From Escherichia coli (lineage in GTDB: Bacteria > Pseudomonadota > Gammaproteobacteria > Enterobacterales > Enterobacteriaceae), in assembly GCF_003334355.1 (NCBI RefSeq), contig NZ_QOWP01000056.1: 10,236 bases of DNA. The stretch is one strand, 5' to 3'. The notes under the pieces are model-generated. The model was not told the origin of the DNA and searched no databases. It saw nothing but the letters and a program-made list of their open reading frames with translations. Below are positions 4,132 to 8,955 of the stretch, piece by piece. Both the position numbers and the translations under genes were made by a program. Position 1 is the first letter of the stretch. Each line of letters starts with the position of its first letter.

Positions 4132-4207
4132 GCCGATATAGCTCAGTTGGTAGAGCAGCGCATTCGTAATGCGAAGGTCGTAGGTTCGACTCCTATTATC
4201 GGCACCA
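4132..4207 (+). tRNA. thrW: tRNA-Thr (anticodon CGU)
   Basis: 76-nt sequence GCCGATATAGCTCAGTTGGTAGAGCAGCGCATTCGTAATGCGAAGGTCGTAGGTTCGACTCCTATTATCGGCACCA with encoded CCA; anticodon loop carries CGT; matches E. coli thrW. Confidence 0.96.
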
Positions 4208-4372: not shown

Positions 4373-5587
4373 GTGAAACTCAATGCCCGTCAAATAGACA
4401 CAGCCAAGCCAAAAGAGAAGGCTTACAAGCTGGCCGATGGTGGCGGTTTGTATCTCTTGGTAAAACCTAATGGAGGTAAATACTGGCGACTTAAATATCG
4501 TGTAGCTGGTAAAGAGAAGCTATTGGCACTAGGTGTGTATCCTGAGGTTACTCTAGCCGATGCTCGGGCAAAACGTGAAGATGCGAAAAGAGGTATCGCT
4601 GGTGGTATCGATCCGATGGAAGCGAAACGAGAGGAAAAGATTGCCCGGGAAACGCAGTTAAACAACACCTTCAAAGATATTGCCCTTGAGTGGCACAGCA
4701 GCAAATTAAAAAAATGGTCTGCTGGTTATGCTTCAGACATCCTCGAAGCCTTCAACAAAGATGTGTTCCCTTACATTGGCAAAAAACCAATCGCCGAAAT
4801 CAAACCACTTGAACTTCTGAATGTGCTGCGGCGCATTGAGGGGCGCGGTGCTACAGAAAAAGCCAAAAAAGTGAGGCAGCGGTGCGGGGAAGTTTTCCGC
4901 TATGCAATAGTCACTGGTCGCGCAGAGTATAACCCTGCACCAGACCTTACTAGCGCGATGCAAGGCCATGAATCTAATCATTACCCTTTCCTTACAGCCA
5001 AAGAATTACCTGATTTTTTCAAGGCATTGTCCAGTTACTCAGGAAGCGCATTGGTTGTTATGGCGGCTCGTCTACTGATTATCACAGGCTTGCGGACTGG
5101 CGAACTACGTGGCGCATTATGGGATGAAATTGATTTCAACAAGGCTCTCTGGGAGATACCCGCTTCACGTATGAAAATGCGGCGGCCTCATATTGTGCCA
5201 TTGTCTGAGCAGGCTCTTTCGCTTATTGGGAAGATTAGAGAAATAACAGGCAATTACCCTCTTATGTTTCCCGGGCGCAATGATCCAAGGAAAACAATGA
5301 GTGAGGCCAGCATAAACCAAGTGTTTAAGCGCATTGGCTACGCTGGACGTGTAACTGGTCATGGGTTCCGGCACACTATGAGTACGATTTTGCATGAGCA
5401 GGGCTATAACACCGCGTGGATAGAAACGCAGCTCGCTCACGTTGATAAGAACTCAATTCGTGGCACATACAACCATGCGCAATATCTGGATGGAAGGCGG
5501 GAGATGCTTCAATGGTATGCCGACTATATGGATTCTCTCGAGCATGGCGGAAATGTGGTGCATATGGTGTTTGAAAAACACGCATGA
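4373..5587 (+). CDS. Site-specific tyrosine recombinase, P4-type integrase family
   Basis: 404-aa ORF with GTG start, GGAGG 4359-4363. N-terminus KLNARQIDTAKPKEKAYKLADGGGLYLLVKPNGGKYWRLKYR is typical of the P4-family integrase N-terminal arm-binding domain; C-terminal GHGFRHT...RGTYNHAQY carries the H-x-x-R and catalytic Tyr motifs. Sits immediately 3' of a tRNA. Confidence 0.92.
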   Translation: MKLNARQIDTAKPKEKAYKLADGGGLYLLVKPNGGKYWRLKYRVAGKEKLLALGVYPEVTLADARAKREDAKRGIAGGIDPMEAKREEKIARETQLNNTFKDIALEWHSSKLKKWSAGYASDILEAFNKDVFPYIGKKPIAEIKPLELLNVLRRIEGRGATEKAKKVRQRCGEVFRYAIVTGRAEYNPAPDLTSAMQGHESNHYPFLTAKELPDFFKALSSYSGSALVVMAARLLIITGLRTGELRGALWDEIDFNKALWEIPASRMKMRRPHIVPLSEQALSLIGKIREITGNYPLMFPGRNDPRKTMSEASINQVFKRIGYAGRVTGHGFRHTMSTILHEQGYNTAWIETQLAHVDKNSIRGTYNHAQYLDGRREMLQWYADYMDSLEHGGNVVHMVFEKHA

Positions 5588-6238: not shown

Positions 6239-6442
6239 ATGGCTAATTACAATTCATTAATTCGTCTCTCTGAAGTTCAAAGGCGAACTGGTTATAGCAA
6301 AGCATGGATTTATCGTCTTATTAGTCAGGGGAGGTTCCCTAAACAGGTAAAAATTGGAAGTCGGGCAATTGCTTTTGTTGAGTCTGAAATAGATGAATGG
6401 ATTGAGAAGTGTATATTAGAATCTAGAGACGAGGTGGCCTGA
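6239..6442 (+). CDS. alpA: AlpA-family phage regulatory protein (Xis/Vis-like winged-helix DNA-binding protein)
   Basis: 67-aa ORF MANYNSLIRLSEVQRRTGYSKAWIYRLISQGRFPKQVKIGSRAIAFVESEIDEWIEK...; helix-turn-helix segment and E-I-D-E-W motif characteristic of AlpA/Vis family; typical position downstream of a P4-type integrase. Confidence 0.85.
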   Translation: MANYNSLIRLSEVQRRTGYSKAWIYRLISQGRFPKQVKIGSRAIAFVESEIDEWIEKCILESRDEVA

Positions 6443-6885: not shown

Positions 6886-7719
6886 ATGAACATCGAAAAA
6901 AGCAGATTAATTTCTGAGGCCGCCCCTCATCTGAACGCCTCTCTGGGCACAATTAACGGTAATGAATTTGCCGCAATTGTCCCGGTTATTCCTGGTCATA
7001 TCGGTGGGCGTGAAACCAATATTGTTAGCGCAAAAGCGTTACACAAAGCGTTGGGCGTGGGAAAAGACTTCTCTACATGGATCACTGATCGCATCTCTGA
7101 ATATGACTTCACCATTGGGCACGATTACTCAGTCCATAAAACAATTTCCCCAAATTTGGGGAAAAGCCCGAATGGCGCGGCTTACAGCAAGATTAAGCAG
7201 TCTGGCAGACCCGGCAAAGACTATCTGTTAAGTGTCGGAATGGCGAAAGAACTGGCAATGATCGAACGCAATGATCAGGGTCGCGCTATCCGCCGTTATT
7301 TCATCCAGTGCGAGGAAGAATTACAGCGTAGCGTGCCTGAAATCGCCGCCCGCTATCGTCGCCAGCTAAAAGCCCGTATCAGTGCCGCAAACAACTTTAA
7401 GCCAATGTGCGATGCGCTGAATATGGCCCGTGCCGAGATGGGTAAAACGACGCAGCAACACCACTACACAAACGAGAGCAATATGATTTCTCGTATCGTT
7501 CTTGGTGGGCTAACTGCTAAGCAGTGGGCGCGGATAAATGGCTATTCTGGCGAACCTCGCGACCATATGAACGCAGAACAGCTTGAGCACCTCTCATATC
7601 TCGAAAGCACCAATATCACGTTAATTGATATGGGCATGGAATATGAGCAGCGCAAAGGAGAACTCACCCGCCTGTCGCAACGCTGGCTCGCCAAGCGTCT
7701 GGAGGTGGTCAATGTCTAA
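6886..7719 (+). CDS. Phage antirepressor-like protein (AntA/KilAC-type N-terminal domain), 277 aa
   Basis: GGAGA SD 6875-6879. Motifs ...AKALHKALGVGKDFSTWITDRISEYDF... and ...DYLLSVGMAKELAMIERNDQGRAIRRYFIQCEE... resemble the AntA-type antirepressor N-terminal domain as I recall it. Confidence 0.8.
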   Translation: MNIEKSRLISEAAPHLNASLGTINGNEFAAIVPVIPGHIGGRETNIVSAKALHKALGVGKDFSTWITDRISEYDFTIGHDYSVHKTISPNLGKSPNGAAYSKIKQSGRPGKDYLLSVGMAKELAMIERNDQGRAIRRYFIQCEEELQRSVPEIAARYRRQLKARISAANNFKPMCDALNMARAEMGKTTQQHHYTNESNMISRIVLGGLTAKQWARINGYSGEPRDHMNAEQLEHLSYLESTNITLIDMGMEYEQRKGELTRLSQRWLAKRLEVVNV

Positions 7720-7894
7720 GCCAACAGGAACACCACAACCACAAAAACGCTACAAAGATGCCCACGGAGCACTCGTTACTGTCGAAAGCGTGTCTCACAA
7801 CCGAGTGACGTTTTATCGCGACGGGTATCAATCGCCATGCGTACAACCGCTGGCGCGTTTCATGAAGGAGTTCGCGGAGGTTAACAAATGCTAA
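7712..7894 (+). CDS. Small phage-type protein (60 aa); tentatively DUF4222-like
   Basis: ATG 7712 with GGAGGTGG 6 nt upstream, overlapping the upstream stop (ATGTCTAA). Translation [60 protein letters not shown]. The track ORF starts further upstream (7625) inside the preceding gene; the internal start is better supported. Confidence 0.65.
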   Translation: MSKPTGTPQPQKRYKDAHGALVTVESVSHNRVTFYRDGYQSPCVQPLARFMKEFAEVNKC

Positions 7895-8955
7895 CCGTCC
7901 AGAAGAAGACATTTTCACTGGCTGGTATGTCGCCAAAATCCAGCAATATGACGGCAAAGTCAGGCATTAATACAGCAGATACAAGCAAAGTTTATCATTT
8001 GCTGGTGGTCGGAACGGATGCCTTAACCATATCAGAAATCTCGGGCGATGATATTAGCATTGAGAAGGTCAGCGGCTGCGCCAGAAAATTTCTGGTCGTA
8101 GATGATGTCTTCCGCTCGTGTAGTGACTCCACAAAAACATTCGTCCACGCGCGTGACGTTAACGAAATGAGCGCGATGTACTGTGCATCTGGTGCTTCCA
8201 ATAGCGAGTTTTCGGAGTCCATAAAAAAGAGCTTGCCGTTATGCGGCAACACGGTTTATGGTTATAAGGCACCTCATAAAACGGGTGCCGGGATTGGCGT
8301 CCTGGTAAATCGAATGGCGACATATGACGCGCCGAGCGTCTTTTTTTATGTCGTAGGTCTGACTCACCCATTTTTTGGGCGTTGGTGTATAATCCAGCGC
8401 CTTTGTCAATCAATGGTGGCTCAGGCAGGGGCTTCTTCGGAAGCGCCGGTATCCATTCGAGCCGGTTACGCCAACCCTGTCTGGGCTACCACCAGCGAAA
8501 TTGGCGTTTCCGGTGGTAGCGTTACATGCTATCGAATGGAGGCTGCCACATGCTGGCTACTACCCCTACCCAAAAACCGCAATTTATCTGGATTATCGCC
8601 GCAGTTCGCCGCGATTGCCCGACAATTACCGCCAAAATTCATCATATTGCTGCCGAGTCTGAACGCGATGCTCGCCGTTCTCTGGTGCGCGATCACGTCT
8701 GCTTTTTTGCTGGTCGTATCCGCATGGAGGTGGCACATGATTAAAACCTACGATGTGCATATGGATCCCCTCGAACGCACAAGCCAGATCATCACACTGA
8801 CAGAAGTGATTAACGACATTCTGGTGAGCAACTCTCCCTCACGAGACGAAAGACTGAAGGCGTTACTCGCGATATTGGATCTCGCCGTTCGTGACGTTCA
8901 TTTCCTGCTGGAAGGTGGCGAAATGCCAGGAAAAACGGGGGCAACCAATGAATAA
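7888..8955 (+). CDS. Unresolved 355-codon open frame: real N-terminal gene start at 7888; frame stays open through the structured RNA region, the Icd-like gene (other frame) and the 8737 small gene
   Basis: ATG 7888 with GGAGG 7 nt upstream and ATGCTAA overlap with the upstream stop supports initiation. No stop in this frame until 8953-8955. Residues ~176-215 ([35 protein letters not shown]) resemble what databases label ash family protein, but this stretch coincides with strong RNA hairpins. The true C-terminus is unknown. Confidence 0.3.
8326..8347 (+). terminator. Intrinsic-terminator-like element inside the 7888 frame
   Basis: GACGC (8326-8330) / GCGTC (8336-8340) 5-bp GC-rich stem, 5-nt loop, followed by seven T (8341-8347). 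A second T6 run is at 8371-8376. Confidence 0.35.
8388..8393 (+). promoter_or_regulatory. Consensus -10 hexamer TATAAT, TG immediately upstream; possible promoter for the structured RNA/icd leader
   Basis: GTGTATAAT at 8385-8393. No convincing -35 at 17 bp spacing, so weak. Confidence 0.25.
8428..8520 (+). ncRNA. Candidate c4/CI-type antisense regulatory RNA (three consecutive hairpins)
   Basis: HP1 8431-8444: GCTTC/GAAGC stem with TTCG tetraloop. HP2 8445-8466: 6-bp stem (2 wobble) with a 10-nt loop carrying TCCATTCGA (8452-8460). HP3 8485-8520: 9-bp stem CTACCACC.../...GGTGGTAG plus 6-bp inner stem, TTGG loop. The HP2 loop is exactly complementary to TCGAATGGA (8532-8540), which overlaps the GGAGG SD of the Icd-like gene, and 8/9 complementary to 8310-8317. 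Confidence 0.4.
8550..8744 (+). CDS. Host cell division inhibitor Icd-like protein (64 aa)
   Basis: ATG 8550 with GGAGG 8538-8542. Translation [64 protein letters not shown]; the F-x-W-x-x-x-A-V-R-R ... E-x-x-A-R-R ... F-A-x-R pattern matches my recollection of Icd-like proteins of P1/P4-type elements. The track start at 8526 lacks an SD. Confidence 0.6.
   Translation: MLATTPTQKPQFIWIIAAVRRDCPTITAKIHHIAAESERDARRSLVRDHVCFFAGRIRMEVAHD
8737..8955 (+). CDS. Small acidic hypothetical protein (72 aa), independently initiated
   Basis: ATG 8737 with GGAGGTGG at 8727-8734; overlaps the icd-like stop as ATGATTAA. Translation [72 protein letters not shown]. Same frame as the 7888 ORF. Confidence 0.55.
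   Translation: MIKTYDVHMDPLERTSQIITLTEVINDILVSNSPSRDERLKALLAILDLAVRDVHFLLEGGEMPGKTGATNE

Follow-up and report, generated by a model that had tools for sequence, protein, structure and literature searches.

Characterisation of the C4/CI type of antisense immunity dates from 1990–1995 onward. In P1, the c4 RNA represses icd/ant (PMC8198154). The supplement of PMC2864571 describes the antisense segments a′ and b′, the sites a1b1 and a2b2, and a competition model, and it also describes the isrK-like element as the a1b1 motif. In P4, according to section 21 of PMC4825925, the CI RNA is processed and pairs with seqA and seqC, leading to premature termination. In Gifsy-1, PMC4825925 reports a processed RNA of ~80 nt at the homologous position and activation in trans by IsrK, and its authors compare IsrK to P4 SeqA and STnc1160 to the CI RNA.

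An earlier note on the window, i.e., the whole stretch of 10,236 nucleotides analysed here, had proposed a candidate antisense RNA that follows the logic of P1 immI and P4 immunity. Both the antisense reading and the parallel were right, as judged by the RF01695 match, the co-varying stems, the loop/target co-variation and the Icd-like ORF downstream; however, the C4 RNA here is a catalogued, already described family rather than a candidate. Positions 8409–8496 are a C4/CI-type antisense "immunity" RNA of a P4-related Escherichia coli island (Table 1). The covariance-model scan that the note had suggested matched them to Rfam RF01695 (C4 antisense RNA) with 79.5 bits (E = 9.8e-15; curated gathering threshold 45 bits) over model positions 1–87 of 87, and the same model gives 74.9 bits for the P4 CI RNA and 75.4 bits for a P1-type c4. 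The C4 and isrK models also match SfV, a Salmonella phage and the P1-like RCS47, in the last case beside ant/c1. A model built from five C4 copies gives 97.3 bits for the window copy, a partly circular score, since the training copies include that of the window. A routine Rfam scan suffices to label this C4 locus, and the biological significance of the label is small.

Table 1. Features of the RNA module and of the genes that follow it, by position in the window.
Feature	Position	Strand	Basis or relation
Candidate leader promoter	8233–8262	+	−35 TTGCCG 8233–8238, 18-nt spacer, −10 TATGGT 8257–8262
isrK-like leader RNA (c4-a1b1 motif / P4 SeqA)	8269–8346	+	Rfam RF01394
a1, UUGGCGU, loop of the leader's second hairpin	8294–8300	+	complement of a′
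b1, UCGAAUGG, single-stranded linker of the leader	8310–8317	+	complement of hairpin-2 loop
Intrinsic terminator of the leader, stem GACGC/GCGUC then U run	8326–8347	+	terminator scan, isrK model
Spacer hairpin GGCGUUGG/CCAGCGCC, loop UGUAUAAU	8378–8401	+	position and structure shared by homologous spacers
C4/CI-type antisense RNA	8409–8496	+	RF01695 match; MFE fold equal to model structure; stem co-variation
Closing stem, 17 bp	8414–8430 with 8475–8491	+	encloses hairpins 1 and 2; present in MFE fold
Hairpin 1, GCUUC-UUCG-GAAGC, UUCG loop	8431–8444	+	
Hairpin 2, stem GCCGG/CCGGU	8445–8466	+	
b′ antisense, CCAUUCGA, in hairpin-2 loop	8453–8460	+	complementary to b1 and b2
Junction between hairpin 2 and closing stem	8467–8474	+	
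a′ antisense, ACGCCAA, in that junction	8468–8474	+	complementary to a1 and a2
Alternative hairpin (third of the earlier note), 15 bp	8485–8520	+	fold of 8467–8525; structure-free MAFFT alignment
CCA tail of the C4 RNA	8492–8494	+	
a2 target, UUGGCGU, 5 nt past the C4 model 3′ end	8501–8507	+	complement of a′
b2 target, UCGAAUGGA, overlaps Shine-Dalgarno GGAGG	8532–8540	+	complement of hairpin-2 loop
Icd-like gene, 64 aa, first regulated ORF	8550–8744	+	NCBIfam NF033153 phage_ICD_like
Next ORF, 72 aa	8737–8955	+	ATG overlaps end of Icd-like gene; own GGAGG 8726–8730

The MFE fold of 8409–8496 is identical to the RF01695 structure (z = −5.8), and the fold of the wider segment 8400–8560 is significant as well (z = −6.1). 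Three consecutive hairpins had been described at 8431–8520; the first, a GCUUC-UUCG-GAAGC tetraloop hairpin, and the second are found in the MFE fold, whereas the third is absent from it, hairpins 1 and 2 being enclosed by the closing stem, and the RNA begins upstream of the segment 8428–8545 that the note had marked. The hairpin-2 loop comprises 12 nt, UAUCCAUUCGAG, and has the 10 nt given in the earlier note if the U8450–G8461 wobble is counted. Across 56 distinct homologues, 98.9% of the cells in the C4 stems are paired, and the compensatory changes that the note had proposed to look for were found, with double changes at 20 of the 27 pairs; the invariance of the hairpin-2 stem in this set is an artefact of the search pattern, which fixed that stem. 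The closing stem, with compensatory changes at 15 of its 17 pairs, is tRNA-like and is directly followed by CCA in 33 of the 56 distinct copies. The most variable columns of the C4 alignment are the pairing positions of the loop (entropy 1.2–1.8 bits).

The segment UCCAUUCGA (8452–8460) of the hairpin-2 loop is, as had been noticed before, the exact reverse complement of the b2 sequence at 8532–8540, and b′ (8453–8460) pairs with 8532–8539. This target indeed overlaps the Shine-Dalgarno GGAGG (8538–8542), 7 nt before the ATG at 8550, and the 8/9 match noticed upstream is present and corresponds to the b1 site. The view of a single antisense segment was correct for b′ and overlooked a′, which pairs with both 8294–8300 and 8501–8507. 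All six pairing sites in the window are perfect or near-perfect. Within the window alone, a chance origin of the 9-mer would fit, since three 9-mer matches with at most one mismatch were found and 2.66 are expected, in line with the caution, already voiced in the note, that a 9-bp repeat alone is not significant.

This chance origin is overturned by the co-variation of loop and target that the note had called for, which was found at fixed positions across 45 specificities. The set consisted of 45 representatives with distinct loop sequences, taken from viral contigs, and mismatched RNA/flank pairs served as the control. In 78% of the 45, the copy's own loop has a complement of 8 nt or more ~36 nt downstream, at b2 on the RBS (mismatched pairs, 1.5%), and in 96% its own junction has one of at least 7 nt downstream at +5, at a2 (5%). 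Upstream, the own-junction complement of at least 7 nt (a1) is present in 98% (8%) and the own-loop complement of at least 8 nt (b1) in 53% (1.1%), with a constant a1–b1 spacing of 16 nt. Where copies stand in tandem on a single contig (L042, L056), their a′/b′ sequences differ and each is matched by its own targets, in indirect support of specificity-dependent immunity in trans. Because loop and targets co-vary in the homologues, the loop–target pairing is accepted and, on these comparative sequence grounds, can be taken as proven. The 45 specificities, with their sites at fixed positions, illustrate the diversification of immunity specificity in the C4 family.

As a separate observation, the compensatory pairs of Gifsy-1 (IsrK G28A/orf45 C162U and G31A/C159U) have a geometry compatible with a1:a′, in that G's of UUGGCGU three apart face C's of ACGCCAA three apart; this tentative mapping used Salmonella phage 118970_sal3 as a proxy for Gifsy-1, and a numbering offset of 3–4 nt remains.

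The candidate leader promoter aligns with TTGCCT...TATAGT just upstream of the P4 isrK-like element, and the TTGCCG/TATGGT pair is absent from the list produced by a consensus promoter scan of the window. From these sequences, leader transcription is predicted to start near 8269. The isrK-like element matches RF01394 with 67.1 bits (threshold 50) over model positions 1–77 of 77, and consists of two 5′ hairpins, a single-stranded linker and an intrinsic terminator, of which GCGTCTTTTTTT is kept in homologues. It lies directly upstream of C4 in the window, P4, SfV, RCS47 and a Salmonella phage, and it holds a1 and b1, complementary to its C4 RNA. As for the spacer, each of nine homologous P4-like spacers, folded one by one, forms a hairpin of 9–12 bp at the equivalent place with a differing sequence; RNAalifold was uninformative, as MAFFT misaligned the variable hairpin of the 62-nt spacer. 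A TATAAT at 8388–8393 was considered as an internal C4 promoter and rejected, as it has no properly spaced −35, the hexamer is not conserved, and it lies within the loop of the spacer hairpin, which is conserved in structure only.

Downstream of the RNA, the Icd-like gene named in the earlier note is bona fide: 8550–8741 match NF033153 with 71.7 bits (cutoff 25), the protein is 44% identical to the P4 ORF in the equivalent position, and RefSeq annotates the gene in strain M10. The 72-aa ORF opens a run of small ORFs toward a TOPRIM/DUF927 primase outside the window (M10 annotation); past the Icd-like gene, neither a Rho-dependent nor an intrinsic terminator could be clearly recognised. The island, at a tRNA-Thr gene, carries an integrase, an AlpA-like gene and the primase, and it occupies the CP4-6 slot beside thrW. 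Its order of integrase, Vis/AlpA-type regulator, CI-type immunity region and alpha-type primase is that of P4 (M10 and P4 annotation). Between the primase and the island end, none of sid, psu, delta and epsilon is annotated. Because helper genes were judged by annotation, the island is termed P4-related and not a P4-like satellite; with no annotated sid, psu or delta, its lifestyle may differ from that of P4.

Many such E. coli islands are cryptic. The CP4-6 slot and the absence of annotated capsid-redirecting genes would likewise suit a decayed relic in a defective island, i.e., a module that is still recognisable but exerts no regulation. However, pairing is perfect or nearly so at all six sites, the Icd-like ORF is intact, as are its Shine-Dalgarno sequence and the primase, and 393 records match the region at 95% identity or more, with 479 of 5426 complete E. 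coli genomes covering 80% or more of it, so that decay is improbable to the point of being nearly dismissible. Carrier strains include E. coli A29 and M10, and there are E. coli genomes that hold 2–4 such islands.

RefSeq presents the same DNA as protein-coding. In genomes identical to the window, it calls a 355-aa CDS over 7888–8955, labelled "ash family protein", which spans the two RNA genes and the Icd-like gene, the latter being left uncalled in such genomes. Residues 124–232 of this product match Pfam PF10554 (Phage_ASH) with E = 5.7e-30, which suggests that the region might encode an Ash family protein, with the RNA structure being incidental. Of 30 distinct copies, moreover, 24 keep the Ash frame open across 273 nt, with the other two frames closed in 29–30 of the 30, and Gifsy-1 orf45, an ORF at the equivalent position, is reported to be translated in PMC4825925. 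However, the PF10554 match corresponds to nt 8257–8583, a span coextensive with the isrK-like element, C4 and a2/b2, and the substitutions track base-pairing, as in the double changes at 20 of 27 pairs, without codon periodicity (codon-position entropy 0.74/0.69/0.84). In a strain 99.9% identical, the frame is broken and annotated as a pseudogene. PMC4825925 also states that orf45's nucleotide sequence is conserved and its amino-acid sequence is not, and that the P4 immunity factor is an RNA that arises by processing of an untranslated transcript. Conservation of related copies at the nucleotide level can account for the open Ash frame, and a genuine Ash protein is extremely unlikely; the coding reading was rejected. 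The RNA reading has annotation value in that, in complete E. coli genomes, the module appears in RefSeq as a CDS or pseudogene named "ash family protein", whereas the recognised module tells which operon is under immunity control (Icd-like to primase) and with which specificity (a′, b′).

Very probably, the locus is the module that confers immunity on a P4-related integrative island at tRNA-Thr; it is homologous to P4 SeqA–CI RNA–SeqC and to P1 a1b1–c4–a2b2–icd, and it would work as follows, with processing, trans action, termination and the decoy role of a1/b1 modelled on P1, P4 and Gifsy-1. Transcription would begin near 8269, and part of the transcripts would end at the 8326–8347 terminator, yielding an isrK-like RNA of ~77 nt with a1 and b1. 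Read-through transcripts would carry the C4-type RNA (8409–8496), with its tRNA-like closing stem followed by CCA, and by analogy with c4 and CI this RNA would be excised by RNase P and 3′ trimming to ~77–81 nt. The mature RNA would display b′ through its hairpin-2 loop and a′ through the adjoining junction, and may pair with a2 (8501–8507) and b2 (8532–8540) on other leader copies. Pairing at b2 would mask the Icd-like Shine-Dalgarno sequence and block translation, and the untranslated mRNA would probably terminate early, switching off the small ORFs and the primase. The island would thereby remain quiescent, with immunity against any second copy that shares its specificity. The a1/b1 sites, in cis or as the short RNA, may compete for a′/b′, by which repression would be tuned or relieved.

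The third hairpin of the earlier note is a conserved alternative conformer. It is formed by 8485–8493 with 8512–8520 plus an inner GAAAU/GUUUC stem, takes 7 nt from the 3′ arm of the closing stem, excludes the outer 7 bp of that stem, and displays a2 in and beside its loop. Forcing it costs 15 kcal/mol (−64.5 vs. −79.5). When scored on a MAFFT alignment that was not fitted to any structure, 94.9% of its cells are paired, with double changes at 8 of 15 pairs, whereas slid controls are 23–53% paired. In the predicted fold of the read-through leader, a1/b1 are paired with a′/b′ in cis and the Shine-Dalgarno sequence is sequestered by UUUCC beside a2, suggesting that part of the control could be conformational, in cis. 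A helix between a2/UUUCC (8502–8512) and the Shine-Dalgarno region (8537–8548), present in the MFE fold, is not claimed as conserved: a2 varies by lineage and GGAGGCUGCC does not, so that the pyrimidine anti-Shine-Dalgarno portion is the only one that could apply generally.

The conservation of hairpin 3 with compensatory changes, despite its competition with the closing stem, and the whole-leader MFE fold, in which the a1/b1 region is paired to that of C4 and the Shine-Dalgarno sequence is sequestered, would also be expected of a leader that opens and closes the Icd-like RBS by conformation in cis alone, through closing stem vs. hairpin 3, a1/b1:a′/b′ and the UUUCC anti-Shine-Dalgarno, such that a diffusible antisense RNA would play no part. 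A possible role in cis was raised by Weinberg et al. (PMC2864571), and the Gifsy-1 study described two leader conformers that differ in translational activity. However, in P1/P7 and P4 the RNA was genetically defined as a trans-acting immunity factor (literature cited in PMC8198154, PMC2864571 and PMC4825925), and the conserved tRNA-like stem with CCA, together with the ~80-nt processed species of Gifsy-1, argues for a separate RNA. In the window copy, hairpin 3 is also less stable than the C4 fold by 15 kcal/mol. Thus, control in cis only is very unlikely, although the two modes, cis and trans, do not exclude each other.

With the trans-acting immunity RNA retained as the preferred reading, the unprocessed leader might additionally be a multi-state RNA switch layered on the antisense system, a tentative proposal that is rather unlikely to hold. 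Hairpin 3 would then form when the 5′ arm is unavailable, e.g., during transcription, upon a1/b1:a′/b′ pairing or after 5′ cleavage, and it would destroy the RNase P substrate and alter the exposure of a2 and of the Shine-Dalgarno sequence. If true, production of the repressor RNA would be coupled to the state of its own target. The leader-switch idea received no more than a hint in 2010 and, to our knowledge, has not been developed in detail for any C4 family member.

Compared by description with the Gifsy-1 isrK–orf45 (STnc1160)–anrP system, the window shares the leader, as 8269–8346 score 67.1 bits on the isrK model, and lambdoid relatives carry a C4-type RNA after an isrK-type element; in contrast, the downstream gene of Gifsy-1 is an antirepressor, and the published model centres on activation by the short IsrK RNA and on orf45 translation. 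P1/P7 immI shares with the window the Rfam family RF01695, whose definition came from P1 c4, and the two-site antisense logic, with b2 on the icd RBS, a1/b1 upstream and an Icd-like first gene. However, the regulated cargo in P1 is the antirepressor ant, whereas the window operon leads to a primase and an AntA/B-type gene lies upstream of the module; the P1-type copy also has a GAAA loop in hairpin 1 instead of UUCG and only 54 of 88 nt in common with the window RNA.

P4 differs from the window in its loop (UAUCCUGUGAAG vs. UAUCCAUUCGAG in the window), its junction (UUCUCAC vs. ACGCCAA) and its spacer (about 107 nt vs. 62 nt). In addition, the window island has an AntA/B antirepressor gene and a DUF4222 gene upstream of the module, is without annotated sid, psu and delta, and is integrated at tRNA-Thr. 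On the side of likeness, the CI RNA of P4 is matched by RF01695, has an isrK-like element upstream, lies in the leader of the replication (alpha) operon, and shares 62 of 88 nt with the window RNA, the closest of the four reference copies. In both loci, an extra spacer separates the leader terminator from the RNA, the a2/b2 offsets are equal (+5 and +36), the first ORF is homologous (44% identical) and the order runs from integrase, Vis/AlpA-type regulator and RNA module to small ORFs and primase.

A scan of the window against Rfam returned three matches above the curated thresholds: the C4 antisense RNA (RF01695) at 8409-8496, which covers the full model with 79.5 bits against a threshold of 45; isrK (RF01394) at 8269-8346, with 67.1 bits against 50; and a tRNA. 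For calibration, the same C4 and isrK models were run on four phages with DNA similarity to the region, and both elements were found in all four with their order unchanged. The C4 match corresponds to the CI RNA within the old 'cI/ash' ORF in phage P4, lies between pacB and ant, adjoining c1, in the P1-like phage RCS47, and falls in the 'immunity region' of Shigella phage SfV; Salmonella phage 118970_sal3 carries the isrK and C4 elements ordered as in the window. Among the phages compared, the P4 copy is nearest to the C4 RNA of the window (62 of 88 nt shared).

Features of the RNA module and its gene context (window positions unless a contig is named)
Feature	Position	Remark
phoE and proBA		first in window order; chromosomal backbone
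tRNA-Thr	4132-4204	anticodon CGU
Tyrosine integrase	4373-5587	immediately after tRNA-Thr
AlpA-type helix-turn-helix gene	6239-6442	followed by hypothetical gene
AntA/B antirepressor gene	6886-7719	followed by DUF4222 gene, then RNA module
Candidate leader promoter	8233-8238; 8257-8262	TTGCCG, 18-nt spacer, TATGGT
a1 (UUGGCGU)	8294-8300	loop of the leader's second hairpin
b1	8310-8317	8-nt copy of the b2 target
Closing stem, 17 bp	8414-8430 with 8475-8491	encloses hairpins 1 and 2
Hairpin 1	8431-8444	GCUUC-UUCG-GAAGC
Hairpin 2 (GCCGG...CCGGU)	8445-8466	loop carries UCCAUUCGA at 8452-8460
b' (CCAUUCGA)	8453-8460	hairpin-2 loop; complementary to b1 and b2
Junction, 8 nt	8467-8474	directly 3' of hairpin 2
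a' (ACGCCAA)	8468-8474	junction; complementary to a1 and a2
Third hairpin	8485-8493 with 8512-8520; 8495 with 8511; 8497-8501 with 8506-8510	isolated-segment fold
CCA	8492-8494	directly 3' of closing stem
a2	8501-8507	complementary to a'
b2	8532-8539	full complement 8532-8540; overlaps GGAGG 8538-8542
Icd-like gene	8550-8744	NF033153, 71.7 bits
Small overlapping ORFs, a run		3' of Icd-like gene
TOPRIM/DUF927 primase		beyond the window, 3' of the small ORFs
Tandem C4-type RNAs, viral contig L042	3326-3413; 3979-4066
Tandem C4-type RNAs, viral contig L056	3518-3605; 4167-4253
Tandem C4-type RNAs, viral contig L041	8148-8235; 8508-8598
Tandem C4-type RNAs, viral contig L051	13666-13754; 13993-14079

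The minimum-free-energy structure of 8409-8496 is that of the Rfam model, with hairpins 1 and 2 where the earlier note had placed them, and the folding check proposed there showed the region to be far more stable than shuffled sequence (z about -6). Homologues were collected from viral contigs in two steps: a pattern search, in which the hairpin-2 stem and CAACCC were the only fixed parts and the loop could vary, and then a search with a covariance model made from five verified copies, which retrieved 71 copies, 56 of them distinct. Across these 56, 98.9% of the cells in C4 pairs are paired, compared with 33-48% in slid controls, and two-sided changes occur in 20 of the 27 pairs (15 of 17 in the closing stem, 5 of 5 in hairpin 1); the alignment had been made to fit the model, and the search pattern itself imposed an invariant hairpin-2 stem. 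Judged from these sequences, the closing stem and hairpin 1 are real beyond doubt despite the model-fitted alignment, and the conservation of the stems on which the earlier reading depended is borne out.

P1 c4 contains two antisense elements, a' and b' (PMC2864571 supplement). The earlier note had seen b': its 9-mer in the hairpin-2 loop is indeed the perfect complement of UCGAAUGGA at 8532-8540, on the Shine-Dalgarno sequence of the Icd-like gene (GGAGG, 7 nt from the ATG at 8550), and its upstream 8/9 match is b1; however, it had missed a'. As it had cautioned, the 9-mer alone is not significant (three matches with at most one mismatch in the window vs. 2.66 expected). Co-variation was scored with one representative per distinct loop sequence (n = 45) as the longest exact complement, within each RNA's flanks, of that RNA's loop or junction, every mismatched RNA/flank pair serving as the control. 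The loop b' finds a complement of at least 8 nt in its own downstream flank in 78% of cases, vs. 1.5% of mismatched pairs, and in its own upstream flank in 53%, vs. 1.1%; for the junction a', at least 7 nt are matched downstream in 96%, vs. 5%, and upstream in 98%, vs. 8%. The loop-target complementarity predicted for homologues is thus kept. Site offsets are constant among the 45 representatives: a2 lies about 5 nt and b2, terminating in GGAG, about 36 nt past the 3' end of the model, and a1 precedes b1 by about 16 nt. Variability along the RNA peaks at the loop positions that pair.

The third hairpin, described earlier as a 15-bp bipartite stem, does form when its segment is folded in isolation and is conserved, but it is absent from the full-context ensemble, where forcing it costs a predicted 15 kcal/mol. 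In its 5' arm, the outer 3' arm of the closing stem is combined with the CC of the CCA tail. When 29 copies are aligned by plain MAFFT, 94.9% of the cells of the third hairpin pair, vs. 23-53% in slid controls, with double changes in 8 of the 15 pairs; the arms read GCUAUCGCC/GGCGAUAGC in P4 and GCUACCGC/GCGGUAGC in RCS47, and more distant lineages retain an equivalent hairpin with a2 in the loop. Frequent overlap of the closing stem's 3' half with the 5' half of a hairpin lying downstream had been pointed out by Weinberg et al. (PMC2864571 supplement). Because it is conserved yet shares an arm with the closing stem, an overlap thus already noted, the third hairpin is treated as a conserved alternative conformer of the unprocessed leader.

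The predicted fold pairs the UUUCC directly 3' of a2 with the GGAGG of the Icd-like gene (8502-8512 with 8537-8548). Most enterobacterial copies have CUCC or UUUCC after a2, a stretch that may be an intrinsic anti-Shine-Dalgarno element of the leader. In P4-type copies, the leader terminator is also separated from the C4 RNA by an additional spacer (window 8347-8408). The spacer hairpin (window 8378-8401) keeps its place and its length (9-12 bp) among copies, whereas its sequence is not conserved; the AU-rich hairpin loop of the window happens to spell TATAAT.

The RefSeq 'ash family protein' WP_024190170.1 of genomes identical to the window corresponds to a 355-codon open frame (7888-8955, + strand) that extends over both RNAs, isrK-like and C4, over the Icd-like gene, which is read in another frame, and over the ORF after it; a strain with 99.9% identity has a pseudogene fragment here. 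The Pfam PF10554 match is confined to residues 124-232, i.e., nt 8257-8583, exactly the isrK-like element, the C4 RNA and the a2/b2 sites. Of 30 distinct homologous copies, 24 keep the frame open, and substitutions in the C4 RNA show no codon periodicity. Given this lack of periodicity and the coincidence of the Pfam match with the RNA module, the 'Ash' family probably represents an artefact, a translation of conserved RNA genes, although orf45, an ORF in the 'ash' frame, has been reported to be translated in Gifsy-1 (PMC4825925).

Several complete E. coli chromosomes contain a stretch identical to the window. The tRNA-Thr and integrase form the left end of an island of ~18 kb, in the CP4-6 slot of E. 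coli K-12, whose right boundary in strain M10 precedes paoD. Among the genes it carries are one annotated 'phage DNA ejection protein' and one for a PerC-family regulator; no sid, psu or delta is annotated in the island, and it is therefore called P4-related rather than a P4-like satellite. The leader promoter at 8233-8262 is plausible from its alignment with its P4 counterpart. The initial codons 3' of b2 (window 8550-8565 and equivalents in compared contigs L002-L005) are conserved, giving MATVP, MATT or MLATT from GGAGGCUGCCAUCAUGGCU, even in copies whose remaining protein is unrelated: the product is Icd-like in the window, P4 and RCS47, resembles an antirepressor in the Salmonella phage and is orf37 in SfV. 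This conservation points to an RNA-level constraint on the translation-initiation region.

On some viral contigs, C4-type RNAs occur in pairs separated by a few hundred bases. At three of the four such loci (L042, L056 and L041), the second copy has a loop and a junction sequence of its own, with targets to match; in L042 and L056, a'/b' differ between the copies and the first copy too has its own matching targets. This arrangement suggests that tandem copies are stacked, orthogonal immunity modules.

The 5' end of c4 and CI is made by RNase P, and in P1 blocked icd translation leads to Rho-dependent termination before ant. In the characterised relatives, the antisense RNA is processed out of the leader, and in P4 it pairs with upstream and downstream sites, causing premature termination and silencing the replication genes, as passages of PMC4825925 describe; in P1, c4 represses icd/ant (PMC8198154). 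The sites a1/b1 may compete with a2/b2 for the antisense RNA (PMC2864571 supplement), and a short IsrK RNA supplied in trans activates downstream translation (PMC4825925). For the window, the analysis establishes family membership, the fold, six sites that co-vary and keep their positions, the placement of b2 on the Shine-Dalgarno sequence and an Icd-like first gene. By analogy with these relatives, we conclude that its C4-type RNA would keep the Icd-like-to-primase operon off and confer specificity-dependent immunity, with the isrK-like leader acting as a built-in modulator.

P4 shares the gene order (regulator ORF88, SeqA-CI-SeqC, small ORFs, alpha primase), and its unannotated ORF 3' of SeqC is 44% identical to the Icd-like protein of the window. 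In P1, ant is downstream of the c4 module, whereas the AntA/AntB-type gene of the window lies upstream and is therefore presumably outside antisense control. The P1 immI and P4 immunity logic proposed in the earlier note agrees with the C4 and isrK matches, the co-varying sites and the Icd-like first gene. All sequence-level defining features of the C4 family were tested and found in the window, and the parallels of IsrK with SeqA and of STnc1160 with CI have already been published (PMC4825925); the earlier note had therefore correctly rediscovered a known system, and the element is neither a new kind nor a meaningfully new variant.
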